From a virus (Duplodnaviria > Caudoviricetes), in the IMG/VR virus record IMGVR_UViG_3300049924_000058, positions 1 to 40,255 of that record: a stretch of 40,255 nt of DNA; one strand, 5' to 3'. The first letter of the stretch is position 1; each line of letters begins with the position of its first letter. The notes under the pieces were generated by a model. The model was not told where the DNA came from. It saw only the letters and a program-made list of their open reading frames with translations, and searched no databases. This document shows, piece by piece, positions 2,292-40,255 of this stretch. A program made the translations under genes and the position numbers.

Positions 2292-2301
2292 GGAGAACCG
2301 A

Positions 2302-2484: not shown

Positions 2485-2485
2485 T

Positions 2486-2605
2486 ATGTACGGCACAGAC
2501 TTGTTAGATTTATTGGACGCAGCAGTACTAGACAAGACTGTAGATGATTTGAACGAAGAAGTAACAGAACTGGCAGCTTCAGTCGGAGAGGTAATTACCG
2601 CCTGA
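2486..2605 (+). CDS. 39-aa acidic peptide (not in the ORF track)
   Basis: MYGTDLLDLLDAAVLDKTVDDLNEEVTELAASVGEVITA*. GGGAG upstream; its TGA overlaps the next ATG (TGATG). Confidence 0.65.
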   Translation: MYGTDLLDLLDAAVLDKTVDDLNEEVTELAASVGEVITA

Positions 2606-3351
2606 TGAAACTACTATTCCTCGACATAGAAACAAGCCCTAATACGGCCCATGTCTGGGGATTGTGGCAGCAAAACGTCGGACTCTCTCAGTTAAGGGAG
2701 AGTTCGCGCGTCATGTGTTGGTCGGCAATGTGGGCAGGAGCAGACGAAGTTTACTTCAGCTCCGAACATAACGCCTCCCATAAGAACATGATTAAAGCTG
2801 CTCACGAGCTCCTAGATGAAGCAGATGCAGTTTGTCACTACAACGGGAAAAAGTTTGATATTCCTACCCTAAACAAAGAATTTCTAAAACACGGATTGCT
2901 ACCACCCTCTCCGTATAAACAGATTGACTTGCTAAGAGTAGCTAGATCTCAGTTCCGATTCCCCAGCAACAAGTTAGACTACGTTGCACAGCAACTAGGC
3001 TTAGGCAAGAAAGTATCCCACGAGGGACACGAACTCTGGCTTAAGTGTATGGCTGGTGATGACGAAGCCTGGGCTAAAATGGAAGAGTACAACATTAACG
3101 ACGTTCTACTCCTAGAAAAAGTATACGACCGACTGCTACCGTGGATTACAAATCACCCTAACATGTCGTATATCAAAAGAGACTATGTATGCCCTACTTG
3201 CGGAGGAGACCACTATCAACATCGTGGTTTCAGAACAACCGCTACAGGAACCTACAAACGTCTTCAGTGTAATGATTGCGGTACCTGGTTCTCCGATAAC
3301 AACATTATCGAAAAAACAGAACCTAGTCTCAGAACAGCCCGTATGAGTTAA
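2605..3351 (+). CDS. RNase H-fold DEDD 3'-5' exonuclease (RNase_H_2/YprB-like) with C-terminal zinc ribbon
   Basis: ExoI FLDIET, ExoII HYNGKKFDIP, ExoIII YNINDV; CPTC...CNDC. Confidence 0.88.
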   Translation: MKLLFLDIETSPNTAHVWGLWQQNVGLSQLRESSRVMCWSAMWAGADEVYFSSEHNASHKNMIKAAHELLDEADAVCHYNGKKFDIPTLNKEFLKHGLLPPSPYKQIDLLRVARSQFRFPSNKLDYVAQQLGLGKKVSHEGHELWLKCMAGDDEAWAKMEEYNINDVLLLEKVYDRLLPWITNHPNMSYIKRDYVCPTCGGDHYQHRGFRTTATGTYKRLQCNDCGTWFSDNNIIEKTEPSLRTARMS

Positions 3352-3431
3352 AGAAAAACCAGAGTGCTTCTGCAGATACGTAGCCGACCCGACGGTGAAA
3401 AGCACATCGGGACTAATTTAAGGAATTATAC

Positions 3432-3620
3432 ATGAGCGGCAAAGGCTCAAGAGAACGGCGTAAAGACGCAGTAAACAAAGCAAAAAAAGCTGTTTACGCA
3501 GCAAACGGAGTAGCACACCTAATAGTCAATCCATTCGACGATGAACGATGTTACCGAATATTTAACGAATACGTAAGCCAATGGTTAAATATCTACTGGA
3601 GGCACGAAAATAATGTTTAG
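3432..3620 (+). CDS. Hypothetical protein
   Basis: TAAGGA SD; overlaps the next gene. Confidence 0.6.
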   Translation: MSGKGSRERRKDAVNKAKKAVYAANGVAHLIVNPFDDERCYRIFNEYVSQWLNIYWRHENNV

Positions 3621-3816
3621 TTACGTAGCAAAATGTAAATACCCTGGACATGAAGACTTTTACTTTTTCACAAGAGAAATGGTAATAGACGACTTCAATA
3701 ATGTTCAGGATGTACTCAAGGATGAAGTACGAAAGCAGTGGAAGAAAGTATCTCCGCACACTCCTCCAGAGATCATAGAAATTCTGGCTGGCTTAATAAC
3801 ACTAGAAAGACAATAA
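3613..3816 (+). CDS. Hypothetical protein
   Basis: GGAGG SD; stops 1 nt before thyX. Confidence 0.65.
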   Translation: MFSYVAKCKYPGHEDFYFFTREMVIDDFNNVQDVLKDEVRKQWKKVSPHTPPEIIEILAGLITLERQ

Positions 3817-3817
3817 T

Positions 3818-4474
3818 ATGCAAACAGTAAGAACAATTGCAGTATCCAAGCCCGTCATTGACGGCCTGGCTTCGCCCGGCGACCTGGTGGCTTACGCCGC
3901 TCGGGTCTCTAACCCCACGAACCAGATGAATACGGAGACGTCACCCAGACTGCTAGCCTATCTGGCTAGGAACGCTCACTGGTCGCCATTTGAGATGGCG
4001 TCTCTGACGATGGAAATAACCACAACCCGAGACATTGCTCGACAAATCCTCAGACATAGAAGCTTCGCTTTCCAGGAGTTTTCTCAGCGTTACGCCGAAA
4101 CTGACGATACGATTATACACAGAGACTGTCGTCTCCAACACCCGACTAACCGCCAGGCCTCTCTGGAAGGCGCTAGTGACGAGAATATCTCTTGGTTCCA
4201 AGAGATGCAAGACGCGGTACAGCACATCACATCTATGGCCTACAAAGAGGCCCTAGAACGCGGAGTTGCTAAAGAACAGGCACGAGTCTTTCTACCAGAA
4301 GGACTAACAAAGTCTGTGATGTACATGGCGGGCTCAGTACGATCCTGGATTCACTACATCCAGATCAGAGCTGATGTGGCTACTCAAAAGGAACACAGGG
4401 AGATTGCACAGCTAGCTAGGCTAGAACTGCTCAAATACTTCCCTGAACTCGGAGACGTAATAGATGTTAAGTGA
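3818..4474 (+). CDS. thyX: Flavin-dependent thymidylate synthase ThyX
   Basis: HWSPFE, signature RHRSFAFQEFSQRY, EQAR..LP, TQKEHR. Confidence 0.96.
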   Translation: MQTVRTIAVSKPVIDGLASPGDLVAYAARVSNPTNQMNTETSPRLLAYLARNAHWSPFEMASLTMEITTTRDIARQILRHRSFAFQEFSQRYAETDDTIIHRDCRLQHPTNRQASLEGASDENISWFQEMQDAVQHITSMAYKEALERGVAKEQARVFLPEGLTKSVMYMAGSVRSWIHYIQIRADVATQKEHREIAQLARLELLKYFPELGDVIDVK

Positions 4475-4688
4475 AAAAGCATTGCACGAAGCCGAAGAGT
4501 TCGTTTGGGATAAACTAGAAACAGAAAAGTTTCAAACACACGACGACTGGATTACCTGGTCTTATGAAGGAGTTAGTTACGACATTAACATCTTCTTAGA
4601 TTTCTACACAGGCAAGATGGGAGCTACTATCTATCCTCTAAAAGACAATAGAACTACGGATACCCTCAAAGGCGTAAGAATTCTATGA
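4464..4688 (+). CDS. Hypothetical protein
   Basis: GGAG SD; overlaps the thyX stop. Confidence 0.65.
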   Translation: MLSEKALHEAEEFVWDKLETEKFQTHDDWITWSYEGVSYDINIFLDFYTGKMGATIYPLKDNRTTDTLKGVRIL

Positions 4689-4822
4689 AAACCAGTATAC
4701 CAGGGTACATCCTGTGTATCACGTATTATTTATTAGGCTTTGGGTGGCATTTGTATTCCCCTTACGACGAGAAGAAAGTATGTTTAATATGCTATAAAGA
4801 AAAACAAGAAAGCCCCAATTAA
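4685..4822 (+). CDS. 45-aa single-pass membrane peptide (not in the ORF track)
   Basis: ATGA overlap with the previous gene. MKTSIPGYILCITYYLLGFGWHLYSPYDEKKVCLICYKEKQESPN*; the stop lies in the terminator loop. Confidence 0.55.
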   Translation: MKTSIPGYILCITYYLLGFGWHLYSPYDEKKVCLICYKEKQESPN

Positions 4823-4833
4823 GGGGCTTTTTT
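4809..4833. terminator. Bidirectional rho-independent terminator separating the two genome arms
   Basis: AAAGCCCC-AATTAA-GGGGCTTT followed by a T run on +, with an A-rich run upstream (T-rich on -). Lies exactly where the + and - genes converge. Confidence 0.85.
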
Positions 4834-4864
4834 ATATATACGTACTTGGGATAACTATGCTGAC

Positions 4865-6068: not shown

Positions 6069-9000
6069 TTAATCGTCAGTATCTTTGCGGTACACAGAAG
6101 GGGCTTTAGCGTTGATGCTCTCGGCTCCTGTAGGGTACTCACCTTCATTTAAATCGTCTACGTCTGTCATAATAGCATAGCCTTCACCAGCCACTACAGT
6201 ACCGAGGTCCTTACCATCCTTAGTTATAACTCTTGCTACTATACGGCCTTTATGGGTACCGTACTGGATGATTCTTACTTGGTCGTCCTTAAGCAGCTTC
6301 TTGATGTAAGCAGCTCCCTCTTGACCTATAGCCACAGTACCGTTGTCTATCTTCTGAGATAGTTCAAAAGCGTCTATGTTCTGGAGTCTTACTTTGAAAG
6401 TCCTGCCATTAGCATCAGTGACGTGAATAGTATCAGCGTCGTGGGCTCCGGTGACTCTAGCAGTAAACTCTTTTATTGGCTTAGGCTGTCCGAATAGAAC
6501 ATCTTCCATAGAAGCTTTATTTCTATTGGCTATGGCATGTTGACCTGCGTCTTCTCTACGACCAGGGCCTAGTTTGCCTAACGGAGAGATAGTTGTAGTG
6601 TCTAACAAGCCCTTCTTATTAGCCTTATAGAAGTCAGGAGCAGCGCCCTCTACGAAAGCTTTCTTGTGCTCTACAGCCTCTTTGTCTTTCAAGTCAGCGC
6701 CTTTAAGCACGCCAGCAGTCTTATCTCTAAGCTCTCCGAGACCTGTGTCATCTTTGATACCATCTAGGAACTCTTTCTTAGTCATCTTAGATGCTTTATA
6801 AGAGGCCATAGTGGTGTTATAGAAGTCTAGGTGCTTCATCTTGATACGATCAAGCATAGGCTCCATCTCTTCTGTCATCTGAGAGATGTTCATAGAATAG
6901 TCAGCAGCTATCTGGTCCTTCATAAACTTATGCAGGGTATTAGCTTCTGGGTCGTTCTTATTCTGAAGAGCAGATACGGCACCCCACTGTACATTCTGAA
7001 TACGCTTGAATGGGTCTATCTCAGTCATACCGAAGATATGGAACATAAAGCCCATAGTATTATCAGGGGTAGGATCTCCACCGAACTTATTAACGCTGTT
7101 GATAGCCTTGAGCAGACCAGCATTAGTGATTCTATCCCAAGTGTTGTCGAGAGTCTTACCCTCAAGTGCCATATCAGCCAAGAAACCGCTAGGCCATGTG
7201 TCTTTAAGTACAGTCAGGACATCTTCTCTAGCTCCAGGACTCAGAGCAGCGATAGCGCGCTTAATTAGAGTGTCAGCCACATCCAAAGGATGTACAATCA
7301 TCTTTAGATTGCTGTAAATGGGTGTACCAGCTTCAGACATACCAATGAAGACCATAAAGTTAGGATCTTCACTAGGCATAAAGTTCTGTTCAGCCATCCG
7401 CTTCAACTTCTTCTCTTCATCTTTCAGCTCTTCCTCTGGGAACTCCAGACCAGCTCTTAACAGAGTCATTAGGCCATAGATAGCAGCCCACTGAGCAGCC
7501 GTGCGAGCTAATACACTTGTCAAATGCAGAGAAGATGCAGCTAGTGCGTCTCCGTTACCTGCAGACTTAGCTTCTTTAATCATACTGGCAGCATCAGCCA
7601 CGTTTTGTGTAAGGCCGACAGTGGAAGCATACAAGGTCTGGTAGGTAAAGCCTAAGAACATAGACAAGCCTATTCTGTCAAAGAATTTAAGACCTATAGG
7701 CATGCCTTTGGCGCTCGGGAACTCCCTACGCACCTTATTACCCGCCTCAGCTGCAGTCAAAGGAGCCTGTCCCATAGCAGATTTATACTTATTTATCTCT
7801 TTACGGGTCTGTAAAACAGCAGCTATCTTAGGAATAGCCTCGACGAAGGTCCACGCAGCTATCACATTAGCCTTAGCGAGCTCAGTAGCCTGTCCAGCTT
7901 TGTCTAGGGAGCTCGTAGCTCCTCCTAGGAGCCTCTGGGCTGCGTCGAAGTCTTCAGTCTTACTCTCTACGCCTATCTCAGCAAACATGGCGCTGTCGAT
8001 GACCTCAGAGGCCATGATATACATGTAATCCTCAAACAACGGATCTGTAGGGTCGATAGGAGCACCAGCCCTGTTCGCAAGCCACATTTTAGAGATAGTA
8101 GTAGCATCTTTGATAATCTTGCCGCTAAAAGTAGCCTTTAGTCCGAAACTAAGCGCACCAACGCCGACGGCGGCCCACAATTTACCTGCTGTAAAGACAG
8201 ACCACATCTTAAAGTAGCCCACAAATTTAGCAAAGGTATTGAGTCCTTTGACTGCAATAGCATTAGTAAATGATTTAGCGTCATCCGCCAGAGCGGCTTG
8301 AATAGCCGTCTCTACTGGATCTCTAGTAGCCATGTTCTTGAGCACGTACTCAAAGTCCTTGTGGACTACCATGTTGGAATAGGTACTGGAGATACGAGAC
8401 AGTGGGGCCCTGACATATAGACTTTCCTGCCCTGCAGGAATCTGGTCTAGGGGGACTAGCACGCCTTGTCTGTGCAGAGCTTCTAGCATAGACAGACCGT
8501 TAATCATATTGATTTGATTCTCTACAGACTCAGAAACCCTACGACCGTAATCGTGCATCTCTCCGAGCAGATCTCTGAAAGGCTTATTCTCTGGGCCTTC
8601 TAGGACCTTAGCTTCTAAAGCTCCTGCTCCTAGACTGGTCTTACTGGTGTCGAGGGTGATACCAGAGTCTATGACCTTGCTATCCTTGAACCAGGACTCT
8701 AGGGCTAGCAGTGCAGCGTTGCGCTTCTGTTCCGAGTTAAGATTATCCCAACCGTCAGGACGGCTAGACGAGAATGCTGTAGCTGTTCCGTTCTCCCACG
8801 AGTCTACGACAGCACTAACGGCTGTGTCTACTAGAGCTATGGTCTGGATAGAGGTCTTGGTCATAAAACCAGCCAGACCGGTGTATGGGCGAGCAAAGCC
8901 TCTAGGATCGCTCTTAGCTGAGTCGATAGCTACCTTAATAGCCTTCTCCCAGACCTGAGCCGAGGATATAGAGAACTTGTGATACGTCTGGTACAGGTAA

Positions 9001-12000
9001 CGGCCCTTAGAGGCTAGAAGAGCATCCACGCCTTCCTGTATAGCAGCCGAGGACGTAGCGTAAGACCTGCCGCTAAGTATCTTAGCGATTAGCTTATCAA
9101 TCATAGAGTCTACACCGCGACGTAAGTCGTCGGAAGCAGCTATAACTGCGTCTACGCCAGCAGGATTACCTGTGGACTGAGCCCAGCGCTGTCTGAAAGC
9201 CGTACGCATAACGCGTCTAGCGCTAGGAGTCATACCGACTTCATCGTGAGCAATAAGACCTAGCATCATCTGGTCTCTTACAGCCATGTCCTGTGTAAGC
9301 TCATCCATAGCTAGATTCAGACGCTCTACACCTCCGTTAACATCCGACAAGGATGCTGCAGCCCAGGCTTCGGCCTGTTCCTTAACTGTACGTACGTTCT
9401 TGTGTTTGCTTCTATCCCATATCACACGGGAGAGCATGTTCAGTCCTACGGTAGCAGACATAGCAGAGCGCAGCTTAGAGACCAAGCCTCTATCTGTCAC
9501 TAATCCTACGGCAGCGTTAACGTCTTCTTTAGTTAAGATAGACTTAAATGTCTTGAAGAAAGAAGCCTTGGTTGAGGAGTCTAAAATAGAACCGCTTTCA
9601 AGGAAGCCAGTGTCTTGGTCTTCTTCTGACTTGTCTAGCAGACGACTCTGCATCACAGGCCGCTTACTAACTGGCTTAGCAGGACCGCCCTTTAATATGA
9701 TGACGTCTTTGGACGTGTAGGCTGAGGGTTTCAAAGAGGCGTAGTATTCAGGATTCTCGTAAGGCACGTAATACCCATCATTCTGTCTACTGCTTACCAG
9801 CTCTCCACCATCGTAGTACTTAGTGCTAGCTCTATAAGATATGTCAGCATCATTCATAAAGTAAGACTGGCCTAGATACGGATCTTTAGTAACATCAGGC
9901 TCTCGTGCATCATCAGGCAGTAGATTACTAGCTCCTGTGAAGTACTCGTCTCTTTCTAGAGCTTCCATAAGCTCTTCTGAGTCCGTCTGTGCTGTCTCTA
10001 TCTCTTCTTCAAGTTTGTCGATAGCCGCATCCATCTCTTCTATTGTATCGAACTCTGTGTCATCTAGAGAGGTGTAATCGTATTTGTTTTCAAAGGCGTT
10101 AGGATCTTTAAGAGCTTTCTCAGCTTGCTCGTAGACGTCATCATCATTAGGCCTATACTTATTGGCCTCTAGAAACCTACGACCTATGATTAAAGCAGCA
10201 GTAAGTTCTGCTTGCTGTTTTATGGCAGGAGTAGTTAGATTATACGCGTTGTAGGTATCGCCTTTATAATCGGTAAATAGAAAGTCTTCTTTCTCAAGAC
10301 CTGACAGCATTCCCAGCTCTTCCGCAGCCATCATAGAGGTCTTAAATTGAATCTGCATGTACACTGAGTTTACACGTTGTGCTATATGTGCAGCAAGTAG
10401 GTCCTGCATAGAACCAACTGGGATGATAGCATCTTTGAATTCTAGTCTACCTGAAGAGGTAGTAGAAACCTTTCCGTTCTCTCCTCGTACAACTACAGGA
10501 CGGCGAAGAATAATCTTTCCGTCTACCGTAGGAAGCTCCGGCATTATGCCTGTGTCAGCTTCTATAGCCAGCATGGCGTCAAATAGAGTGCCGAGGTATT
10601 TGTTATCGTCTACCATAGTAGGAGACTTGCCAGCAGCACGTAGTCTGTCGTAGACCATCTTCTGCATATTGATTAGAATGACATCCCTACTTTCTACAGT
10701 TGGGGAAGTTACTTTAGGTCCTTTATTTCTACTAGTAGTTTTATACATAGTAAAGATCTTACCCTCTTCCTTGTAACCTACACGCTTAACGATGTAATCA
10801 CTATACCAAGTATTACGAGCATCAGTAACTGTGCCTAGCTTGATGTTCTTAAGCAAGGCTATTCTGTCTTTCTCTTCTCCGCTGTGCAGAGCAGCTGATA
10901 TGTTATCAGCCAGCTGCTGCGCGTTAACATAGGCCAGGATCTTAGACCGTAGGGACTGCTCTGCGGAGTTGTAGTCTTTAGTTTTCTTCTTGGCGGAGTA
11001 CGGACGGTTAGCAAAGATAACATTTAATCTTTCTCTAGAGCCTGGCTTACCTGCCATAGCAGCATCATATTCCTTACGGAGCTTGGCAACAGTAGCCTTA
11101 AATCTAGCCTCCATAGTATTACTTTCCGCAAGCTTTCTACGGTGGGTTTCTGCCTCTACTTTACTACCGAATACTTTTTTATCTTTTACTTTAGCAGCTT
11201 CTTTCTTATCTAGAGCAGCTTGGATAGCTCTGTCGTGCTTAGCCTCTATGTATTGTCTGAACTCGTCTTCAAGCGCATCTGTGTTGCTCAGTATATACTT
11301 AGCTTTGATTCTCAGCGCTTTAAGAACAGAAGCCGAAGTATCGGAGCCTAGAGTATACATAGAAGCCCACTTTGTCTTGGTAGACGGGGCAGCACTGTCG
11401 GAAACACCAAAGGCACCAGTAGCCCCAATCTCTGCAGTCAGATCAGAATCAGACATAGCGCCTACGGCGGTGCCTTCCTGAGCAGCTAACTTGTTAGCAG
11501 AGTCTATAAGACCTGCGTTACCTTTAGGTGAGTAGATAGGAAGGGTGGTGTATATATTTCCTGCGAGACGGTTCTCTCCGTCAGCCATAGCGATGAAGTT
11601 ATCCGCTAGAACCTTAGTGGTAGCGCTGAGCTGAGGAACAAAGGACAAGTCTACAATGTCACGCTTCAAGGCGCCATCAATGTCAGCATCCTCTATACGC
11701 TTCTCTACCTGAGACAAAGCAATGACGCTATCTACGAAAGTTTCGTAGCGTTGTCCTGCTATTGTGTTCGACTCTAGAATACCACCAGAGACTTTATCAC
11801 GGACATACTTGCCCACGTCAAAGTTCTCTAGGTGCTTAAGCGTAGAGGTGTAGTTCAGGGCTCCTTGAGTTGTAGCCAGGATGAACATAGGCTGCAGCTG
11901 CGGAGTGTTAGCCATGTTAGAAAGGGCGGTGGTGTAGTACCCCAGGACTTCTAAGTAGTAACGGCTTGTGCCTGGCTTGATGTCTATAGACGCGACAAAG

Positions 12001-15000
12001 CTCTTCATGGCTTTCCATAAAGGGTCATGCGCAGCTTCCATCTGCAGGTCTATGTCTTTGAGTTGGTCTAAGCTAACGCCAGCTTCTAGGTCTTTGTCGT
12101 GCTGGAACTCGTGACGCACGGCGTCCATAAAGTTAGATGAGCTTCTCAGCAGTAGCGGAGTTTGTTCTTCGTAAAACTTCTGCATAGCAGCTCTGCGGGC
12201 TTTTACAGTCCACGCAGAAATCCCTCTAGCAGACTTAGCTAGGGTTTCACGCTCAGCCTTACGAGCCTCTAGGTTCTTACCAGTGAACTCAGCTAGGTTG
12301 ATGTAGATAGTTCTACTGCCTTTATCTATCTGACCTTCTTTAGTTGTAGCTTCGTCATAAACTAGATTAATCTTACCTGCAGCAATTGCCTTAAGTACAG
12401 AGTCTATCTCAGCTGCATTAGACGCACGGCGAAGCTGCTTAGCAACAGCTAGGCGCTGGAAGAAAGACATGTCCTTGAAACGTTTCTGCTTAGGACGCTT
12501 AGACAGATCTCTGGCAGAAGCTTGTTCTTCAGTAGTACGTCTATTAGCTTTGGTATTAGAGTCGGAGTCTAAGATATTAAGTCTTTCGCGCAAACGATCT
12601 CTTTTTTTAGTCAAAGAATCTACTGCTTTTTTATACTCCTTGAGCAGTGCTTTCTTGTCAGCCATATGTTTTTTATAATCTGAATCTCGCAAGGCGCCTT
12701 CATCGTCGTTATAGTTATACGGATCGAAACTATACTCGTGCTCACCTTTAGCAATTTCCCATGCCTCAGCTATAAGCTTCTTATCGGTGTCTATATAGCT
12801 CAGTTCTTTTGTGGCTGCTGCGTGGCGTGCGTTTCTAGCATTGAGTATCTCACTAGCTGGCTTTTTCTCTTCTTTTTCTTTCGGGGCAGCCCTGTCCATA
12901 AACTCAGCCCTAGCTGCTTTTACTTTCTCCAGGGCTTTGGAAGTCTCCTCTTTATGCCTAGTATACCAAGCTTTGTCGCCTACCCTCCTCTTAACTCGTC
13001 TAGCTAAGGAAGCGGCATTTAACTCGGCTTTACCAAACATAGGATCATTATTATTGAATTCAGCGACGCGCTCGGCCTCTGCTCTTATATCTTCTTTACT
13101 GGCCAGCGCTATAACAGTACGAACGTCTGCTATGTCTTCAGCAGCAGTAAGGCCGCCATTAAGCAATATACGTCTAGGATTCTTTAAGACGGCCTCTGGA
13201 TCTGTAAGGCTATCATTTAAATCCTCGCCAATATCCTCACCCATTCCTAAAGCTTCTAATTCACTTTTAATGTTATTAGAGAGACGCTGCCTATTGTCGC
13301 CAGAAAAAGAAACCACTTTAGTATCTGAGTCTAAAAGATCTGAATCTTTTTTAGGTCTGGTTGCTAGCACGTTAGCTCTGTCTACAGCAGTCTGTGCCTC
13401 TCTTGACATTATCTTGGCTAAGTTTTCATCACCATTAGTGAAGGCCTGGTCAGCATTATCAAACTGACGCTCAGAGAACTCTCTTAGAGCCTCTTCATCT
13501 TTAGACGCACGAATCTTGTCTATAACAGAAAGAGTATCTCTACCATCAACTCCCTTTCTGAAAGAGCGTACGCGAGCTTCTAGATCAACAGCTTTCTTTC
13601 CTTCAGGACTATTAGCAACCTCTTCGGCTTGCTTACGCTGCTTAACCTGCTCGACACGAGCGTACTCTTTCTCGAACTCGGCGACTAGTTCTGGGTTAGA
13701 ACCGTCAGCCTTAGCACGAGCTACTTCCTCACCGTACTGTTCTAAGGCAGCGGCTTGTTCTTCTTGTCCGCTATTGCGGAGTTGTTCTATAGAAGAGCTC
13801 AGAGATCCTCTGACACTCTTAGTAAAGTCTTCGTCTTTCTGTTTCTGTGTAGGCACTTCTGATGTAGGGTCTACGTCCTCAGCATACTCCACCTTATCTT
13901 TCTTAGGAGGGATGACTGCAGTAGAATCTCCAGGCAAGGGTACTCCAGCGACCTTAGATTCTTGTGAGCTAATGCCGTTAGATTGTGTAGCTGTAGGTGC
14001 GTGCACTTCCTGCATAGCGGCGGTAACGGAAGGGATCTCAGGCATGGAAGAGAGATTCTCAGCTTCCTTAGACTTCATCTTACTCGCTAGAGCTACGTCT
14101 TGTGCCGCTTGTACGCCAGCAGATGCCGAAGATAGAGTGCCGGAAGTCAAGCCTCCTAGCACCGCACCTTGGACCATAGCGCCGCCTACGTTCTGTAGAG
14201 CAGCTTCGCTGTCCCATTTCTTATCGTTTACAAGCACGTTGCCTAGGTACGTCTCCGAACCACTAGCAATGGATTCCTCAACAGACTCGGACGCTGTGCT
14301 CTTCGCTACGTCTAGCAATCCGTTATCTAGATTCTGCCCTAGACGCTGCTCTATAGTACGACCACCAATGCGGAAGATCTGCTCTGTAACGAAGTTAGCG
14401 CCCATAGAAATGTTACCTGCTATGGTAGCTTTACGTTCTACTTCTTCTGCACTCAATTCAGGCTGCTCAATAGCCAAGCGTTGTTTAGTAGCATAGTACG
14501 AATCGGCACCAGCGCCGGCATTCTCTATGGCGGTAGTAGCTATGTATCTACTGTTGCGCTGGACTGCTCCAAGCACTGGTAGGTTCTTAGCAGACTGCGA
14601 GAACTTCTCTATAGCAGCGCCGGCTTTAACAGCCTTAGTACCACCTATCAGAGCGCCGAACTTTCCTAGGCGGCCTAGAGGCACTACACCTAGCATCTCT
14701 TCGCCGACTTCGCTAGCCACATCTCTAGCTGCCCAAGCAGGGAGCTCAGAAGCAAGCTTAAGCCACGAAGATGCAGTAGCGCCTTTAACTTGTTTTAGGT
14801 TGTTGTATTCAGCTTGAGCGCGAGCTAGCATGACTTTGGCATCCTTTGGATTGATGCCGGATCTAGGATCTAAAGTAGCCGCTTCTGCCATAGCAATATT
14901 ACGTTGAGCTCGACTGATCTCGTCAGCAGCAGCTTTAGACTCGTCAAGACCTACACCGCCTGAGCTCTTATTTCTCATGTGCTCGATAGCAGCGATTCTA

Positions 15001-15539
15001 TCACCTAGCTGATAGAGTCTGTTGTTCTTAGTTGTTTCGTTTCTGTCAGACTCGTTCAAAAAGCCAAGGGCATTGAAGTATGATTCATCCTTTCTTGCCA
15101 TACGCACAGGGGCTTCTACAAGAGCATTACCTGTGCGCTCAGTGCCTTCAACCACAGCACCAGCCGTAGCCTTAGCTACGTCTAGTCCGGAGATAGCTTT
15201 GTACTTACGTTCTAGACGAGCTCTCCACGCATCAAAAGACTCTTCCACGTAGTTGCCTTCCGCGTCAGTAGAGGCAGTAAGTTTCCTAGCATCAGGGTCT
15301 TCTTTAAGACGGTCAGAGTTGTAAGAAGTAGCTTCTTTGATGCGAGCTTCTGTTTCCCTACTTGTGGCTTCTTTTTCAGCCTTATCTTGCTCTTTCTTCT
15401 TCTGTAAAGAAGACAGATACTCTTCTGCTTTGTCAGACTCGAGCACGTCCAAAGGAACGTCCTGAATGACGTCCCCGTATGCCTGACGTAAAGCCCTATT
15501 TCTGTTTAACTTTTCTGCTGTAGTCCGAGATATTTTCAT
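6069..15539 (-). CDS. Giant (3156 aa) internal virion/ejection 'polyvalent' protein with HExxH zincin-like motif and C-terminal thermonuclease (SNase) domain
   Basis: Sits after the nozzle and small ejection genes. Ala/Gly-rich hydrophobic segments near the N- and C-termini; HEFQH at 12099-12113; DADT...VRLQNIDAFE...GQEG...GRIVA at about 6160-6470. Confidence 0.8.
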   Translation of the reverse strand: MKISRTTAEKLNRNRALRQAYGDVIQDVPLDVLESDKAEEYLSSLQKKKEQDKAEKEATSRETEARIKEATSYNSDRLKEDPDARKLTASTDAEGNYVEESFDAWRARLERKYKAISGLDVAKATAGAVVEGTERTGNALVEAPVRMARKDESYFNALGFLNESDRNETTKNNRLYQLGDRIAAIEHMRNKSSGGVGLDESKAAADEISRAQRNIAMAEAATLDPRSGINPKDAKVMLARAQAEYNNLKQVKGATASSWLKLASELPAWAARDVASEVGEEMLGVVPLGRLGKFGALIGGTKAVKAGAAIEKFSQSAKNLPVLGAVQRNSRYIATTAIENAGAGADSYYATKQRLAIEQPELSAEEVERKATIAGNISMGANFVTEQIFRIGGRTIEQRLGQNLDNGLLDVAKSTASESVEESIASGSETYLGNVLVNDKKWDSEAALQNVGGAMVQGAVLGGLTSGTLSSASAGVQAAQDVALASKMKSKEAENLSSMPEIPSVTAAMQEVHAPTATQSNGISSQESKVAGVPLPGDSTAVIPPKKDKVEYAEDVDPTSEVPTQKQKDEDFTKSVRGSLSSSIEQLRNSGQEEQAAALEQYGEEVARAKADGSNPELVAEFEKEYARVEQVKQRKQAEEVANSPEGKKAVDLEARVRSFRKGVDGRDTLSVIDKIRASKDEEALREFSERQFDNADQAFTNGDENLAKIMSREAQTAVDRANVLATRPKKDSDLLDSDTKVVSFSGDNRQRLSNNIKSELEALGMGEDIGEDLNDSLTDPEAVLKNPRRILLNGGLTAAEDIADVRTVIALASKEDIRAEAERVAEFNNNDPMFGKAELNAASLARRVKRRVGDKAWYTRHKEETSKALEKVKAARAEFMDRAAPKEKEEKKPASEILNARNARHAAATKELSYIDTDKKLIAEAWEIAKGEHEYSFDPYNYNDDEGALRDSDYKKHMADKKALLKEYKKAVDSLTKKRDRLRERLNILDSDSNTKANRRTTEEQASARDLSKRPKQKRFKDMSFFQRLAVAKQLRRASNAAEIDSVLKAIAAGKINLVYDEATTKEGQIDKGSRTIYINLAEFTGKNLEARKAERETLAKSARGISAWTVKARRAAMQKFYEEQTPLLLRSSSNFMDAVRHEFQHDKDLEAGVSLDQLKDIDLQMEAAHDPLWKAMKSFVASIDIKPGTSRYYLEVLGYYTTALSNMANTPQLQPMFILATTQGALNYTSTLKHLENFDVGKYVRDKVSGGILESNTIAGQRYETFVDSVIALSQVEKRIEDADIDGALKRDIVDLSFVPQLSATTKVLADNFIAMADGENRLAGNIYTTLPIYSPKGNAGLIDSANKLAAQEGTAVGAMSDSDLTAEIGATGAFGVSDSAAPSTKTKWASMYTLGSDTSASVLKALRIKAKYILSNTDALEDEFRQYIEAKHDRAIQAALDKKEAAKVKDKKVFGSKVEAETHRRKLAESNTMEARFKATVAKLRKEYDAAMAGKPGSRERLNVIFANRPYSAKKKTKDYNSAEQSLRSKILAYVNAQQLADNISAALHSGEEKDRIALLKNIKLGTVTDARNTWYSDYIVKRVGYKEEGKIFTMYKTTSRNKGPKVTSPTVESRDVILINMQKMVYDRLRAAGKSPTMVDDNKYLGTLFDAMLAIEADTGIMPELPTVDGKIILRRPVVVRGENGKVSTTSSGRLEFKDAIIPVGSMQDLLAAHIAQRVNSVYMQIQFKTSMMAAEELGMLSGLEKEDFLFTDYKGDTYNAYNLTTPAIKQQAELTAALIIGRRFLEANKYRPNDDDVYEQAEKALKDPNAFENKYDYTSLDDTEFDTIEEMDAAIDKLEEEIETAQTDSEELMEALERDEYFTGASNLLPDDAREPDVTKDPYLGQSYFMNDADISYRASTKYYDGGELVSSRQNDGYYVPYENPEYYASLKPSAYTSKDVIILKGGPAKPVSKRPVMQSRLLDKSEEDQDTGFLESGSILDSSTKASFFKTFKSILTKEDVNAAVGLVTDRGLVSKLRSAMSATVGLNMLSRVIWDRSKHKNVRTVKEQAEAWAAASLSDVNGGVERLNLAMDELTQDMAVRDQMMLGLIAHDEVGMTPSARRVMRTAFRQRWAQSTGNPAGVDAVIAASDDLRRGVDSMIDKLIAKILSGRSYATSSAAIQEGVDALLASKGRYLYQTYHKFSISSAQVWEKAIKVAIDSAKSDPRGFARPYTGLAGFMTKTSIQTIALVDTAVSAVVDSWENGTATAFSSSRPDGWDNLNSEQKRNAALLALESWFKDSKVIDSGITLDTSKTSLGAGALEAKVLEGPENKPFRDLLGEMHDYGRRVSESVENQINMINGLSMLEALHRQGVLVPLDQIPAGQESLYVRAPLSRISSTYSNMVVHKDFEYVLKNMATRDPVETAIQAALADDAKSFTNAIAVKGLNTFAKFVGYFKMWSVFTAGKLWAAVGVGALSFGLKATFSGKIIKDATTISKMWLANRAGAPIDPTDPLFEDYMYIMASEVIDSAMFAEIGVESKTEDFDAAQRLLGGATSSLDKAGQATELAKANVIAAWTFVEAIPKIAAVLQTRKEINKYKSAMGQAPLTAAEAGNKVRREFPSAKGMPIGLKFFDRIGLSMFLGFTYQTLYASTVGLTQNVADAASMIKEAKSAGNGDALAASSLHLTSVLARTAAQWAAIYGLMTLLRAGLEFPEEELKDEEKKLKRMAEQNFMPSEDPNFMVFIGMSEAGTPIYSNLKMIVHPLDVADTLIKRAIAALSPGAREDVLTVLKDTWPSGFLADMALEGKTLDNTWDRITNAGLLKAINSVNKFGGDPTPDNTMGFMFHIFGMTEIDPFKRIQNVQWGAVSALQNKNDPEANTLHKFMKDQIAADYSMNISQMTEEMEPMLDRIKMKHLDFYNTTMASYKASKMTKKEFLDGIKDDTGLGELRDKTAGVLKGADLKDKEAVEHKKAFVEGAAPDFYKANKKGLLDTTTISPLGKLGPGRREDAGQHAIANRNKASMEDVLFGQPKPIKEFTARVTGAHDADTIHVTDANGRTFKVRLQNIDAFELSQKIDNGTVAIGQEGAAYIKKLLKDDQVRIIQYGTHKGRIVARVITKDGKDLGTVVAGEGYAIMTDVDDLNEGEYPTGAESINAKAPSVYRKDTDD

Positions 15540-21639: not shown

Positions 21640-21665
21640 ATTATGTCATCTCCTTAAACTAGTGG

Positions 21666-21689
21666 GTCGGGCCCCCGAAGGAGCCCGAC
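21666..21689 (-). promoter_or_regulatory. Stable C(UUCG)G hairpin downstream of the capsid genes (mRNA stabiliser/partial terminator)
   Basis: Minus strand reads GTCGGGCTCC-TTCG-GGGGCCCGAC, a 10-bp stem with one G-U pair. No U-tract follows. Confidence 0.65.
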
Positions 21690-21702
21690 GATTGTATTAC
21701 TA

Positions 21703-22382: not shown

Positions 22383-23399
22383 TTAGGTCAGCGAACGCGC
22401 AGCGGCTTCGATACGGACACCCCAAGCTTCATTCAAGCGAGTTACGACGTACCACATTTTCCAGCTGCAGAAACCGCGCTGAGCCAACGGATCTTCGATA
22501 GAAGCAACCGGGTTCTTGAAGATAACTTCAGCGGATTCGTAGCCTTTAAGAGCAGTAACGGCGAAGAAGTCTTGTCCCAGAATAACCAGAGGATAGACGT
22601 CAACAGCGCCGTTCGAACCGAGCACGTCGGTCGAGACACCACCACCGCCAGCCGAAGTACCTGCACCGTAGAACGGATTCAAGTGCGGGGTCAGGATGAA
22701 GCGGATATCTTCAAACTTACCGATTTCTTGGTCCATGATACCGGAAATATTGCCGTACTTCTCACGTGGCACGAAGCCGGTAAGATCACGCAGATCCGAC
22801 TCTAGGTTGCTGTGACCGAGAGCGATGTAACCAGGAGCGACAGGCTCAGTAGCGGTGTTAACCGATGCCGAGATCATCTTGGTTAGTTGCTTGGCCAGGT
22901 TGCTTTTCAGAACGCGCTGAGCTAGACGCAGATCAGCTTCTTGTACTGGGGCGTTAACTGTAACGCGCGAGGTAGCGGTACCTGTGTAGATAACGTTTGT
23001 ACCAGCGCGGATAACGTTCCAGATAAGACCTTCTTTCACCTGAGCAGCTTGTTCCGACATTAGCTCGGTCATCTGATTCAGAATCGGGTCTTCGTGTGTG
23101 TCAGCGATAACGTCAGTGAATTGCACCCAAGCGCCGTACTGCGAGATAGCAGTTGTGACGTCTTCGAAGCGCAAGGCTTGTGGGGCTGGCGTAACGCCTT
23201 CGGTCAGAGCTACTAGCGAGGTGTCGAACGGAATCGCTCTGCGCCACTTGATAGTCTGGGACTTGTTTTTAGGAAGCGGTTGCGATGTAGCAAAACGCTC
23301 CAGAACTAGAATCGGTTGCGCATGTGCCAAAAACTTAGCAACTGCGTGAATACCGACTCGCGGCGAGATATCGCCGTACTGCATACCATTATAGGCCAT
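22383..23399 (-). CDS. Major capsid protein (N4-gp56 family)
   Basis: YGDISPR, PLPKNKSQTIKWRR, LTEGVTP, QYG, EIGKFEDIRF, DPLAQRG..SWK motifs. Confidence 0.93.
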   Translation of the reverse strand: MAYNGMQYGDISPRVGIHAVAKFLAHAQPILVLERFATSQPLPKNKSQTIKWRRAIPFDTSLVALTEGVTPAPQALRFEDVTTAISQYGAWVQFTDVIADTHEDPILNQMTELMSEQAAQVKEGLIWNVIRAGTNVIYTGTATSRVTVNAPVQEADLRLAQRVLKSNLAKQLTKMISASVNTATEPVAPGYIALGHSNLESDLRDLTGFVPREKYGNISGIMDQEIGKFEDIRFILTPHLNPFYGAGTSAGGGGVSTDVLGSNGAVDVYPLVILGQDFFAVTALKGYESAEVIFKNPVASIEDPLAQRGFCSWKMWYVVTRLNEAWGVRIEAAARSLT

Positions 23400-23417
23400 T
23401 TGTTAAATCTCCTTGGA

Positions 23418-24338
23418 TTAATATTGTCTTTGGTTGAGCTTCCGGTGCTCTTCAAATACTTTCTTGAAATAAGCCTCAGGGTCAGTCTCTTGTCGCTGAG
23501 CTGGCGAGGCAGCAGAGCTGCCAGGCACCTTAGCAGTAAGTTTTCTAGCCCTTTCTTCGGAAACGTCAGCCGCTTGTTTAGACGGGACCTTACCTGTGTA
23601 AAGGTTGAAACGCTCTATTGCCAGTACCACATCTTCGGCGTAGCCTGATTCTGCAAGTTGACGTTGGTTAGGAGTTAGTGTTTCCTTGTACTGAGTCCAT
23701 TCAGCAGATCTAAAGATCTCTGGCGCTTCAGGTACTGCGCTTACAAGTTTATTAAACTCCCGTTGCATGTCCTCTTGTTCCTCTACTTCGCGGAACGTGT
23801 TAGTGACTTCTCGGGCTGCTTCAACACTCTGCTTCTTCGTGGACGTAACCATACGGTTAAATGTTGCCTGAAGAGCCGCAGCAAGTGTGGGGTCTGTCTC
23901 TCTTATTAGTGCGAAATGCTCGTTGTCGAATGCGTCTGCTAGAGAGGCATCTCCTTCGGCATCTGAATCTGGTTTGGCGGAATTCTCAGCCATTGTTTGA
24001 AGTTTTTTGTCCAGCTCTGCCAGCTTACGCTGTAGCCCTGGAACTCTGCCAGCGTCTGATTTTAGACGGTGTTGTGCTGTCCTTGCTTCCTCTAGCTCTC
24101 TCCTGAGCTTGGTCGTCTCGTCTTCGTCTCCGTGATCTTCGGCTTCCTCGCGGACCTCTTCGGTCGGCGCTTCTTCCTCTACTACCACTTCCTCTTTGAC
24201 TTCTTCCGCGGCAACCTCTTGAATAGGTTCCTTAACTTCCTCTTCTTCTTTAGCCATCAAGGCGTCCATAGCTACTGTATCATTTGTCTCCATAGCACGA
24301 GAGATATCTTTAAATAGCTTATCATTTTCTTCTTGCAT
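23418..24338 (-). CDS. Capsid scaffolding protein
   Basis: Acidic coiled-coil protein between portal and MCP; RLKSDAGRV motif. Confidence 0.75.
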   Translation of the reverse strand: MQEENDKLFKDISRAMETNDTVAMDALMAKEEEEVKEPIQEVAAEEVKEEVVVEEEAPTEEVREEAEDHGDEDETTKLRRELEEARTAQHRLKSDAGRVPGLQRKLAELDKKLQTMAENSAKPDSDAEGDASLADAFDNEHFALIRETDPTLAAALQATFNRMVTSTKKQSVEAAREVTNTFREVEEQEDMQREFNKLVSAVPEAPEIFRSAEWTQYKETLTPNQRQLAESGYAEDVVLAIERFNLYTGKVPSKQAADVSEERARKLTAKVPGSSAASPAQRQETDPEAYFKKVFEEHRKLNQRQY

Positions 24339-34231: not shown

Positions 34232-36742
34232 TTATGCTATCTTTTGACACTCTACCTGATAGTAGTATAGTGTGGAGGTTAGTACTTCGTGCAGTTCTGC
34301 TGTAGGATTAGAATCAATTATAGCCTTATAAAGATCTGTTAGTTTAGAATTAAGCCACACAGTCTCTCTATTCTTAGATAAATTAGCTTCCTCTACAGCT
34401 TCTGTCTCTGTTATAGGACGGCCGTAGCCTATGCGTAATATAGTAGGAGTTTCAGGAGCTACATACACGTACGGCACGTACTCACATTTAGTTAACACCC
34501 TAGCCCACATGGCGTACTCAAGACCTCTAACGGTAGTATGAATACCTCTCTGGTTTCCCTTAGCTCTGAGCCCGTCAAATAACCTTACGTCATACTCGGT
34601 TACTGTAGAAGGTAGTGTGGAAGTTATGGTGCCTGTGAAGACAAGTAGAGCAGCTCCGTTTATACCAAGACTCCTAGCAGTTGCTAGGCTTCCGGTGTTT
34701 AGGATACTCTGTACTCCAGATATAGATGCTTGCTTTCCAGCAACAGCTGTACCTAGATTTAACTGGGCATTAGCTCCTGTCAGGAATACTATAACGTCCG
34801 AGCCTACTTGTGTGAAACCTTGCTGTACTGCTACAGAGGTTCCAGAAGCAGCTACTGTTTTAGTTGTTCCTAAAGAGCCTCTGGAAGCTGTAGTGTTTTG
34901 TCCAGTGATAGAGACTACTACTGAATTCTGCACTACAACCGAGGACTGTGCTATAGAAGTACTTTGTCCGGCCAGTGCAGCTTGTCTTGTAGAAACAATG
35001 CTTTGTTGCTGTACGCTAGCGGATTGTCCGCTTAGAGTTACTGTCTTGGTGAGCGTTAGCGAACCCGACGAAACTGTAGTGGACACGCCTGTTATAGAAG
35101 CCGTACCATCTGCTACACCGGTAGTAACTTCGGCTAGATTTGGAGCAGCTTGTATATTATTAGTCGGAGAGCTTGTGGCTCTTCTAAAATATAACTGAAC
35201 CTCATACGCAGTGTTTAAACTAAGCCCGCTCTGAGTTGTAGTTGCGCTAATCTCGCCTAGCTGATCTAGCTCACCGACCACTACACGGCAGTCTGCGATA
35301 GCCTCTATCTCAGTTCCTACATCAACCCAACTACCGCCTAGAGTTCTATACCTCCATATAGCGAAAGCATTGTAGATACCATCTGTTAGAGTACCTACAT
35401 CGTAGAATATGTAACCAGAAAAATCTAGTTTCCCTAAGGAACCAGATGACACTCTAAGTATGTCAGTAACAGCAGCAAAGCTAGTGCCTCCTGCTATGCC
35501 TGATATGGTATCAGCAGCGTAGGTAGGAGCTATGTCGCCTATGCTAGAACTTAGACTTGAGCCGCTTAGCGCTTTTGTGAGGCTTGTAGAAAGAGTACCA
35601 GTCTGGACTTGTGCTGACTGGCCTGTCAGGTTAACCGTAGCTGAGGTGGAGACAGTTACCGTACCAGCCGAGGAGCTTAACGCTTGTCCAGATACCGCTT
35701 TACTTATAGCGCTAGCTAAAGTACCAGCAGCTAAGGCTATAGAAACACCTGAAAGTGTTACTGAGTAACTAGCAGTTGTAGTTACTGTACCTGTATTGGC
35801 TGTAACCGCTTGTCCGGACAACGCCTTAGATAAGCTACTAGTTACTGAACCTATAGAGGCAGGTACGCTGATACCACTCAGAGATACAGTAGCACCCGTT
35901 GATGCTGTTACTGCCCCTGTTTGTAGAGCGTTGCTCTGTCCTGTTAGCCCTAGAGTCTTCGTTGTGCCTAAAGATCCCGCGCTTAGAGCTGCAGAGATGC
36001 CTGTAGGTAAGGCTAGTGTCTTTTGGGTTGTAGTAGATTGTAGAGCTAGGGTAGCGGCCTGCCCAGAGACAGGTACTGATAGTGTCTTTGTAACAGAGCC
36101 CTGAGAAGCGGACAAGGCTTGACCTGTTACTGATACCGAGACATCTCCGCTCACTTGCGCGGCAACGGCTACTGTTATGGGGATAGCCGCTATGTTGTTA
36201 GTCGGGGTCCCGGATGCCCTACGTAAATAGAGCTGTACTTCGTAGACAGTATTAGCCGATAACCCAGACTGGGAGGCTGCCGCTGAAATCTCACCAAAGT
36301 TGTCTAAAGCACCGCCCGTAACTGATGCGGGGAATGTCTGAGTGGTTTCAGTGCCTACATCAGTCCAGGAACCGCCTATTGTACGATAGCACCACAGCAA
36401 CCGCGCGCCATAAGTGCCATTAACCGTCTCGTTGGTGACGGTGTACTCCATAACCCCAGAGAAGTTCAGCTGTCCGCTGGACCCGCTGTTTATCGGCATA
36501 ACTTCCGTTATGGGGACAAAAGTGATGTCTGGTATGGATGTAGAGAGGACCGTACTCTCGTCGTACAGCGGAGCTAGTCTAGCTACCGCTACTGAGAGCC
36601 CCTGCCCAGTGATGGACACGGAGACGTCTCCGCCCCCAGCGTCTTGCACCAACCATTCATCAAACCAGTCGGATACGGGGACACTCCCATACCAACCTTG
36701 TAGGGTTAAGCTATCGCTGAATATCCGCTTAGGCGTTGCCAC
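34232..36742 (-). CDS. Repeat-rich fibre/appendage protein
   Basis: ~20-22-aa (V/L)(S/T)G(Q/V)...G(S/T)(V/L) repeats interrupted by two copies of a ~130-aa globular domain. Confidence 0.7.
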   Translation of the reverse strand: MATPKRIFSDSLTLQGWYGSVPVSDWFDEWLVQDAGGGDVSVSITGQGLSVAVARLAPLYDESTVLSTSIPDITFVPITEVMPINSGSSGQLNFSGVMEYTVTNETVNGTYGARLLWCYRTIGGSWTDVGTETTQTFPASVTGGALDNFGEISAAASQSGLSANTVYEVQLYLRRASGTPTNNIAAIPITVAVAAQVSGDVSVSVTGQALSASQGSVTKTLSVPVSGQAATLALQSTTTQKTLALPTGISAALSAGSLGTTKTLGLTGQSNALQTGAVTASTGATVSLSGISVPASIGSVTSSLSKALSGQAVTANTGTVTTTASYSVTLSGVSIALAAGTLASAISKAVSGQALSSSAGTVTVSTSATVNLTGQSAQVQTGTLSTSLTKALSGSSLSSSIGDIAPTYAADTISGIAGGTSFAAVTDILRVSSGSLGKLDFSGYIFYDVGTLTDGIYNAFAIWRYRTLGGSWVDVGTEIEAIADCRVVVGELDQLGEISATTTQSGLSLNTAYEVQLYFRRATSSPTNNIQAAPNLAEVTTGVADGTASITGVSTTVSSGSLTLTKTVTLSGQSASVQQQSIVSTRQAALAGQSTSIAQSSVVVQNSVVVSITGQNTTASRGSLGTTKTVAASGTSVAVQQGFTQVGSDVIVFLTGANAQLNLGTAVAGKQASISGVQSILNTGSLATARSLGINGAALLVFTGTITSTLPSTVTEYDVRLFDGLRAKGNQRGIHTTVRGLEYAMWARVLTKCEYVPYVYVAPETPTILRIGYGRPITETEAVEEANLSKNRETVWLNSKLTDLYKAIIDSNPTAELHEVLTSTLYYYQVECQKIA
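35141..36577 (-). repeat. Duplicated ~130-aa domain (36180-36577 and 35141-35533) separated by short tandem peptide repeats
   Basis: WCYRTIGGSWTDVGTE..GEISA..QSGLSANTVYEVQLYLRRASGTPTNNI versus WRYRTLGGSWVDVGTE..GEISA..QSGLSLNTAYEVQLYFRRATSSPTNNI. Confidence 0.9.
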
Positions 36743-39083: not shown

Positions 39084-39262
39084 TTCTTTTTACGCTCCAG
39101 CTCCTGAACTCGATCTTCGAGCAGGTTAAGCCTACGTTCGTGGTTAGCTACCCTACCCCACAGTTGAGGAGCAGTATTTACCAGCTGTTTCAGTTTGTAG
39201 GAGAAGCTATCTCCTCGCTTCGACGCTAAGAGCAGTCGAAGACTGCGTAGAAACTCTTTCAT
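39080..39262 (-). CDS. Small basic coiled-coil protein
   Basis: ATGA overlaps; HERRLNLLEDRVQELE. Confidence 0.65.
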   Translation of the reverse strand: MKEFLRSLRLLLASKRGDSFSYKLKQLVNTAPQLWGRVANHERRLNLLEDRVQELERKKK

Positions 39263-39732
39263 ACGATCTCGATATTGTCCAGAAACCAGTCCTTGCGAGA
39301 CTTGTCCTTCCGGGTTATAAAATTAAGCCCCACTTTATGGCAGGGAGCTATGTGTTCTTCGAACTCTTCCAGGGATAGGATGTTACGTATTCCGTACTTC
39401 CGTTTAAGGTAGTACCAGTAGGATCTTTCCAGGGAATCGTAGTAAGCTACCCTTTCCTTGAATCCGTACTCGCCCTGCCTACACTTCTGAGTCCTCTTTC
39501 TTGTGTCCTGGCGGATCTTCTGTTTCCGCTTGATTCTAGCACTTTGCTTCTTACGCTGAAGCTGCTTCCGGAAGATATCCTCCCTCCGCTTTAGTTCCGC
39601 CTTGCGGCGTACCGAGGAGTGAGGTAGAGGTCTACCCAGACCGAATACATCCGTAATTCTGCTGTTACCAGAATTCAACGAATTAATCAGGAGATTAATA
39701 TCGTCTGTACCAGGCTGTTTATTAGTATTCAT
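39259..39732 (-). CDS. Arg/Lys-rich protein with degenerate HNH-like C-terminus
   Basis: ~45-aa R/K/Q helix, then KRKYGI..LSLEEF...ITRKDKSRKDWFLDNIEI, reminiscent of the phage HNH 'DRID..gY..dN' end without clear catalytic residues. No SD; ATGA-coupled to the next gene. Confidence 0.55.
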   Translation of the reverse strand: MNTNKQPGTDDINLLINSLNSGNSRITDVFGLGRPLPHSSVRRKAELKRREDIFRKQLQRKKQSARIKRKQKIRQDTRKRTQKCRQGEYGFKERVAYYDSLERSYWYYLKRKYGIRNILSLEEFEEHIAPCHKVGLNFITRKDKSRKDWFLDNIEIV

Positions 39733-39736
39733 AATC

Positions 39737-40083
39737 TGTCTATATGAGCGGTTCTATAGAACCGCGAATCAAGCCAACCTTTAGGTTGGAGTAATAATAC
39801 CAGCTTAGGAGAAGCCGTAAGAGCTTCGACTAAAAGCTGGTCTCTATGAGAAACTTTAGTTTCGAATAGTACAGTAGTATTTACTGAAGAAGTACAATTT
39901 CTTGTACTTCGAAGCGACTCGACTCTTAGGAGAGTCGTACTACTGTCTAGAAGTAACTTAGAGAACGGAGTGAACTTAGTTACTTACCGCAAGGTCTCTC
40001 GCATCCGCCGCACCGGATGCCTAGACAGTTTGTAAAACTGTATAGTAGTTAAGGACCCCGCGAAAGCCAAAAAGATATAGACA
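39737..40083. ncRNA. Candidate large structured RNA (or structured ssDNA element), about 347 nt
   Basis: About ten stems packed nearly end to end and enclosed by a 9-bp terminal stem, TGTCTATAT (39737-45) / ATATAGACA (40075-83). No ORF of 60 aa or more in the track. Confidence 0.55.
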
Positions 40084-40111
40084 AAATGAAAATAAATTGA
40101 AAATAGGTCAA
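40083..40111 (-). promoter_or_regulatory. Possible sigma70-type promoter for the late arm
   Basis: TTGACC-17 nt-CATTTT on the minus strand in an AT-rich tract; the -10 is weak. Confidence 0.3.
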
Positions 40112-40140
40112 AATATTCACATTCTATTCAGTTAACTATA

Positions 40141-40206
40141 CTATACCCTCCCTGCTCGACGAGCGAGCCAGACTCGCAAGGAGATGTCCTTGCTCCTATA
40201 CCCTCC
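40141..40206. repeat. 11-bp direct repeat CTATACCCTCC x2 flanking short hairpins
   Basis: Copies at 40141-40151 and 40196-40206; GCAAGGA-GATG-TCCTTGC hairpin (40176-40193) between them. Confidence 0.7.
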
Positions 40207-40255
40207 AGATAGCATGTTTTGCCTTTATGAACAGAACCTGAACAGAGTTATAAAC

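Follow-up and report, generated by a model that had tools for sequence, protein, structure and literature searches.

An apparently undescribed folded element, tentatively a late-transcript leader, ahead of the late operon of a podophage-like virus

How a proposed new podophage family, that of the DES1/StenR_269-like phages (PMC10747016), switches on a 35-kb late operon is the question addressed by the locus described here. The window, that is, the whole 40,255-nt stretch of DNA analysed, is one entire linear virus record with a completeness estimate of 63%; two of the contigs aligned on it extend beyond 40254, so the physical genome end lies outside it. DNA-metabolism genes occupy the + strand at 1-4688, and a block of virion, packaging and lysis genes runs on the minus strand from 39732 down to 4865, an interval in which all long ORFs are on that strand. 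The best relatives of the capsid and large terminase proteins are found in Xanthomonas phage DES1 and Stenotrophomonas phage StenR_269 (58%/56% and 52%/50%). Parts of the window occur in 24 sequencing runs, labelled as freshwater or freshwater sediment (21), aquatic (1) and wastewater (2).

Other features of the genome can be noted here. Where the two gene blocks converge (4689-4864), a hairpin between A and T runs looks like a bidirectional terminator. The minus strand at 6069-15539 encodes a 3,156-aa protein without cysteine, with a C-terminal staphylococcal-nuclease-like domain (PF00565, E 3e-5). It resembles a large late protein of StenR_269, also Cys-free, for which a virion RNA polymerase role has been proposed; the StenR_269 authors present that role only as speculation (PMC10747016, section 3.2), and a crude pattern check of the 3,156-aa protein showed no polymerase catalytic motif. 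In a gap separating two late genes, downstream of capsid, 21640-21702 (-) forms a long, GC-rich hairpin that has a cUUCGg loop and lacks a T-run, possibly a pause, processing or stabilising site.

The region ahead of the late block, 39737-40083, comes to within 4 nt of the ATG that opens the first late gene and is overlapped only by ORFs of 21-28 aa. The original prediction held that nearly all of it is base-paired, and this is borne out: the folded structure is real. Under RNA parameters its z-scores are -7.66 (+) and -8.88 (-), none of 100 shuffled controls folding as well on either strand, and under DNA parameters they are -8.42 (+) and -8.14 (-). Among 51 windows of 347 nt it ranks first (-6.6; runner-up -3.3), whereas among 268 windows of 150 nt its best piece comes only 4th. 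Three coding 150-nt windows (901-1050, 2101-2250 and 35401-35550) exceed that piece, with z of -4.8 to -5.8 from 12 shuffles each. Every pairing arm that had been proposed is present in the sequence at its proposed position. The features of the locus are as follows.

39737..40083, minus strand: structured non-coding element, predicted 5' leader of the late transcript (folding, covariation)
39259..39732, minus strand: first late gene, 157 aa, 24% K+R, homologous to StenR_269 WQZ00994.1
39987..40063, minus strand: three-way junction with a 13-bp closing helix (39987-40000/40051-63) containing four G.U pairs
39951..39985, minus strand: hairpin with an 8-bp stem and an internal loop (folding; no listed change in the relatives that cover it)
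39871..39946, minus strand: three-way junction with a 9-bp closing helix (39871-79/39938-46) and four compensatory pairs
39850..39863, no strand assigned: short hairpin with the compensatory pair 39853:39860 in relatives X2 and X4
39774..39841, no strand assigned: two hairpins in a swappable segment, replaced in X2/X3 and X4
39748..39765, no strand assigned: perfect 18-bp palindrome, kept in X5
40067..40145, no strand assigned: AT-rich tract (78% AT) holding a short late-strand word at 40126-40133

The element, not recognised as a known family in the original prediction, matches no Rfam family at the gathering threshold. A search of the whole window against Rfam 15 at E<=1 gave two weak matches, both outside the element, and a search of 39600-40255 at E<=10 gave a single one (AniS, 20 bits against a cut-off of 50). 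No ribozyme family was matched in Rfam. A CUGANGA word at 39884-90 (+) was rejected as a hammerhead: it has two extra bases before GAA, is mutated in X2 and has no Rfam match. A CsrA sponge was dismissed with GGA at about chance level by inspection, and a MITE was rejected on the lack of a target duplication and the single copy in the contig.

On the + strand, pair probabilities of at least 0.9 confirm the hairpins 39748-65, 39774-89, 39799-39841, 39850-63, 39889-39910, 39951-85 and 40001-20; the proposed hairpin 40025-41 is less secure, at 0.78. The higher-order arrangement that had been drawn over them did not survive. The nested helix 39939-46/40042-49 has a pair probability of 0.03 (+) or 0.00 (-) and is not confirmed, because 39938-46 pairs instead with 39871-79 (0.72 on +, 1.0 on -); base 40046 is deleted in one contig of relative X3. 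In X2, X4 and one X3 contig, 39948-49 has changed without compensation, which breaks the CTAG/CTAG helix (probability 0.24), and with it falls the nested four-way junction, contradicted both by the pair probabilities and by the changes in relatives. The predicted minus-strand junction 39987..40063 is the most conserved part of the element; it encloses the hairpins 40001-20 and 40021-45 and a linker, 40046-50, in which the X3 deletion is located. The junction 39871..39946 contains a 9-bp hairpin that covaries (39889-39910) and has GAAA as its minus-strand loop, and a hairpin at 39915-37 with two possible registers. The outer stem does form in the isolated 347 nt but is rearranged once flanks are added, and in the more distant relative X5 4 of the 9 left-arm bases are missing.

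Whether this structure is maintained by selection was judged from contigs aligned on the window, since no full-length homologue was found. Blastn against 50,697 phage records returned only matches of 30-53 nt, and a genome index only short matches, apparently chance, to AT-rich or hairpin pieces. The 42 stretches picked up by a viral pattern scan showed no nhmmer similarity, and a second pattern picked up none; none of 598 metagenome candidates was confirmed among the matches listed, and protein-anchored scans of viral, metagenome and genome contigs found no homologue of the element. The 80 loci reached via a 154-aa neighbour belonged to unrelated phages and were discarded. The relatives compared are contigs from 8 of the 24 runs, including X2, X3, X4, X5, X8 and X24; those of X8 and X24 cover the ORF only, and X6 gave no contig.

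Over 39835-40120, X2 differs from the window by 16 substitutions, all inside 39853-39949. Ten of them make up five double-sided compensatory pairs: 39853:39860 (AT>GC), 39885:39913 (TA>CG), 39891:39908 (AT>GC), 39892:39907 (GC>AT) and 39916:39936 (GC>TA); the other 6 are unpaired in the model used, and the 39915-37 register was picked after the variants had been seen, the alternative register having two pairs broken in X2. Random placement within the variable span gave at least five such pairs in 15 of 200,000 trials and at least four in 372, a covariation signal that comes from one lineage (X2 and X3 are from one study and share a genotype; X4 shares one pair). All five changes are Watson-Crick to Watson-Crick, and the helix of each is present in some predicted fold. 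A deletion at 39868 in X2/X3/X4 breaks a 4-bp extension (39844-47/39866-69). Over 39950-40120, X2 has no substitution while the flanks diverge completely, those beyond about 40120 being unrelated among relatives. Whole segments have been exchanged, 39770-39834 in X2/X3 and 39652-39808 in X4. In X5, a single 151-nt contig of depth 2, the gene start reads like the 62-66% identical homologues; the 18-bp palindrome is kept and the interior of the next hairpin is replaced by a different hairpin, so structure, and not only sequence, is maintained. Selection on the single-stranded structure of the element is thus supported. Relatives that are otherwise near-identical also differ in the 5' end of the first late gene itself (39652-39732), which has at least two unrelated versions, with an exchange near 39651.

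The strand on which such a structure would act had been assigned to +, antisense to the late operon, from GNRA-type loops and a G-U pair. The conserved domain 39980-40070 favours the opposite strand as RNA: its energy is -40.1 kcal/mol (z -5.3) on minus and -27.5 kcal/mol (z -2.9) on plus, and under DNA parameters the two are nearly equal (-19.0 vs -17.6). This preference arises because of the 13-bp helix 39987-40000/40051-63, in which four G.U pairs on minus become A.C on plus. The other two sub-regions have no minus preference and lean slightly towards plus (z -5.3 vs -5.0 and -5.7 vs -5.0). All three + strand GNRA loops exist, but two of them, GCAA and GAAA, close only 2-3 bp and use the same bases as the 13-bp minus helix. 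The element's only GNRA loop on a perfect stem of at least 5 bp lies on the minus strand, which turns this line of evidence against +; a GAAA loop on minus caps the best-covarying stem. Across the five family regions, such loops number three on the late strand (the element, DES1 and G001) and none on the other. The minus-strand model prefers the 39920 register of hairpin 39915-37 (0.95), which X2 breaks twice, and the covarying 39915 register is the one preferred on +. On balance, a late-sense RNA is rather probable, folded DNA is unlikely and an antisense RNA improbable.

The neighbouring 157-aa protein has a long basic helix, with 22 K/R in 47 residues. Its own cluster aside, 14 homologues share 54-85% identity with it. 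Its homology to the first late protein of StenR_269 is shown (probability 91); DES1 is borderline (E 0.006) and B13 is reached via DES1 only. The first late protein of G001 has no profile match, and G001 serves as a positional analogue only. In all five genomes the first late gene is K/R-rich, with 15-16 K/R in the best 30 residues. Searches of Pfam, PHROG, PDB and folds gave no match for the 157-aa protein, nor any family or fold match to N-family antiterminators, with which only the K/R-rich helix is similar; an Atlas search with the ORF adjoining the element gave only unnamed clusters, at 0.80. A degenerate HNH origin of this ORF, suggested by eye, was abandoned without a family or fold match. 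By analogy, the protein is a candidate partner of the element.

The four podophage relatives carry a non-coding tract of 300-660 nt downstream, not upstream, of the first late gene. In three of the four it is folded, with a sequence unrelated to the element: z is -7.9 on the late strand and -4.8 on the opposite strand in DES1, -6.0 and -5.9 in G001, where both strands are equal, and -4.4 (late) and -5.6 (anti-late) in StenR_269. That of B13, with boundaries set by hand, is no better than shuffles (z -1.4). Comparison of the tracts across the family showed no extended shared sequence and no common fold. An apical hairpin at about 39810-27 matches a DES1 hairpin at 17 of 18 nt (E 0.008, in one of ten pairwise comparisons), in opposite orientation relative to the late genes, and DES1, StenR_269 and G001 all have a short recurring hairpin motif, oriented either way and adjoining AT-rich runs, an arrangement that fits a DNA site better. 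The homologous gene of StenR_269 starts about 310 nt from the genome end, as defined by PhageTerm (PMC10747016, section 3.2). CT(W)AG words are enriched in the element region (10 vs 4.0, P 0.008), in StenR_269, in G001 and in the right end of phage tf; they are not enriched in DES1 (7 vs 7.8), and counts reach 13 in other windows of this genome.

The same neighbourhoods hold further items. In the B13 contig, which is in a bacterial bin, 14 tRNA-like genes follow just after the first late gene on the late strand (7725-9817). In DES1 (23102-24254) the 658-nt, strongly folded tract (z -7.9) has no Rfam match and is followed by an HNH endonuclease gene. In the window, a perfect 11-nt direct repeat lies at 40141-40151 and 40196-40206, 55 nt apart; it resembles a purine-ATA-poly-C word found near the genome end of StenR_269 and G001 and also at the start of the right terminal repeat of phage tf.

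Signals for expression of the element are few. No sigma70 promoter was found upstream of it on the minus strand; on the + strand there was neither a promoter upstream nor a terminator downstream. The short late-strand word, here at 40126-33, is a candidate for a late promoter or a terminus signal; it stands upstream of the first late gene in four of the five genomes, but elsewhere occurs at chance-like frequency. Were it to mark the late promoter, the element would be a 5' leader here, and the tracts of the relatives would be internal and promoter-proximal. The word "promoter" does not occur in the StenR_269 paper (PMC10747016). Terminator-like sites are not enriched in the genome (22 vs 15.7+/-4.8). 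No strong terminator follows the element, and ahead of the first late gene the only intrinsic terminator is a weak 6-bp site with a poor T tail (39817-39801), inside the segment replaced in relatives. Among the 8 runs, the one true RNA run matched the ORF only (39600-39656), and an RNA-labelled run that is probably DNA yielded a 151-nt contig of depth 2.

The reading that we prefer, if tentatively, is that the element is an RNA leader, structured and cis-acting, with which a minus-strand late transcript of ~35 kb begins. Such a leader would fold during its synthesis and would control the late operon that starts 4 nt downstream; RNA polymerase would stay processive by means of the nascent RNA, to which the first late protein perhaps binds through its basic helix. 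By analogy, put/nut-like antitermination would be the likeliest mechanism, itself a doubtful one; with terminators not enriched and none strong after the element, it is without an obvious target. Translational control of the first late gene is the next option and a close second, because this gene lacks a Shine-Dalgarno-like sequence. The main rival, unlikely but serious, develops the origin or terminus signal already entertained in the original prediction, whose inference is supported as regards selection on structure and not supported as regards the + strand. Here the element would be a DNA signal near the right genome end, with single-stranded or cruciform hairpins serving origin function, priming or terminal-repeat processing. 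T7 has a right-end hairpin region that is a precedent for a folded DNA signal near a genome end, and GNA triloop hairpins, of which X5 has one on the + strand, are very stable in DNA. This reading accounts for the equal folding of both strands as DNA (z -8.4 and -8.1), for compensatory changes that are all Watson-Crick, as DNA structure would also give, for the adjoining 78% AT tract, for the StenR_269 gene lying about 310 nt from a genome end, and for the mixed orientation of the recurring hairpin motif beside AT-rich runs. The CT(W)AG enrichment also speaks for it, weakened by the DES1 count and by the higher counts (13) elsewhere in this genome. It is opposed by the 13-bp G.U helix, which gives a large strand preference only under RNA parameters, by the GNRA loops (3:0 for the transcribed strand) and by the lack, by eye, of Frpo-type paired -35/-10 stems. 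No paper was found in a literature search on the T7 right-end precedent and VpV262-type regions.

An independent late-sense non-coding RNA, cut or terminated from the late transcript and acting in trans or as an RNP with the basic protein, is a less likely prospect again. The outer 9-bp stem might delimit a discrete unit of 347 nt, the tract varies in position between relatives, and the B13 locus leads into 14 tRNA-like genes and so hosts RNA genes; yet the stem is not robust (flanks, X5), modules are swapped among close relatives without a family-wide fold or sequence, and the 3' end has no terminator. The + strand RNA antisense to the late operon is improbable. Its fold is strong (z -7.7), it predicts the covarying 39915 register, a G(CUUG)C-type loop has arisen on + at 39850-63 in X2/X4, and the hairpin in common with DES1 has a GUAA loop on + here. 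Against these stand the 12.6 kcal/mol that the conserved domain loses on +, the two GNRA loops on stems of 2-3 bp, the four-way junction broken in relatives, the lack of a + promoter upstream or terminator downstream, and the fact that the element overlaps no late gene. That the spacer is a neutral pile of palindromes might be argued from the free replacement of segments among close relatives and from B13, which has no comparable folding; the five compensatory pairs and the stretch 39950-40120, unsubstituted in X2 while its flanks diverge completely, largely refute this and leave it very improbable.

Set beside known systems, the putative leader resembles several in part. HK022 put consists of two small stem-loops and, as nascent RNA, by itself renders RNA polymerase resistant to termination; lambda N is a small protein with an arginine-rich helix encoded beside its hairpin RNA. 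Put is a phage RNA structure that forms close to the promoter of a long operon and acts on RNA polymerase, and the boxB hairpin recruits N in lambda (PMC12360218). The element is like put by position only, ahead of a long operon; unlike put, it is about 350 nt long, has two three-way junctions and belongs to a lytic podophage late region. Put lies just downstream of a promoter; the element precedes the first late ATG in minus-strand sense, with no sigma70 promoter found there and the word at 40126-33 as a candidate. As in lambda N/nut, a hairpin RNA would adjoin a gene for a protein with a basic helix, binding here being predicted; unlike N, the 157-aa protein is similar to no Pfam, PHROG or PDB entry. 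The element differs from an attenuator or Q-type late leader in having no strong intrinsic terminator before the first late gene. Frpo/ssi sites use a few hundred nt of folded single strand for priming (PMC11541004), whereas here the strand preference appears under RNA rather than DNA energies and -35/-10 stems were not seen by inspection. Like GOLLD, ROOL, OLE and phi29 pRNA, the element is a large, multi-branched, phage-associated predicted RNA structure; unlike them, it has no Rfam match, a narrow distribution and modular swaps. A pRNA role is not needed, since the genome encodes both terminase subunits.

Exact motifs of the element were absent from four supplementary files that accompany the largest survey of viral structured RNAs (PMC10690425), other supplements of which may hold alignments, and the StenR_269 paper, in section 3.2 and further passages, does not mention the folded tract (PMC10747016). 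The element thus seems to be an undescribed structure that probably belongs to the other strand, not the one first proposed. In all five podophages a K/R-rich protein stands first in the late region, with the adjacent folded tract freely remodelled, and it is conceivable, if rather unlikely, that a phage RNA of ~350 nt and this small protein work together as a two-part device where the late operon begins. The candidate pair of a folded tract and a basic first late protein is present in two phages available in culture, DES1 and StenR_269. The significance of the locus is bounded by its narrow distribution and by covariation from a single lineage. If the tract acts as DNA, it would locate the origin or terminus signal of the family; if it acts as RNA, it would be a new large cis-acting phage RNA, and if the two-part device is true, a new RNA-protein antitermination system or late-gene switch in a lytic podophage lineage.
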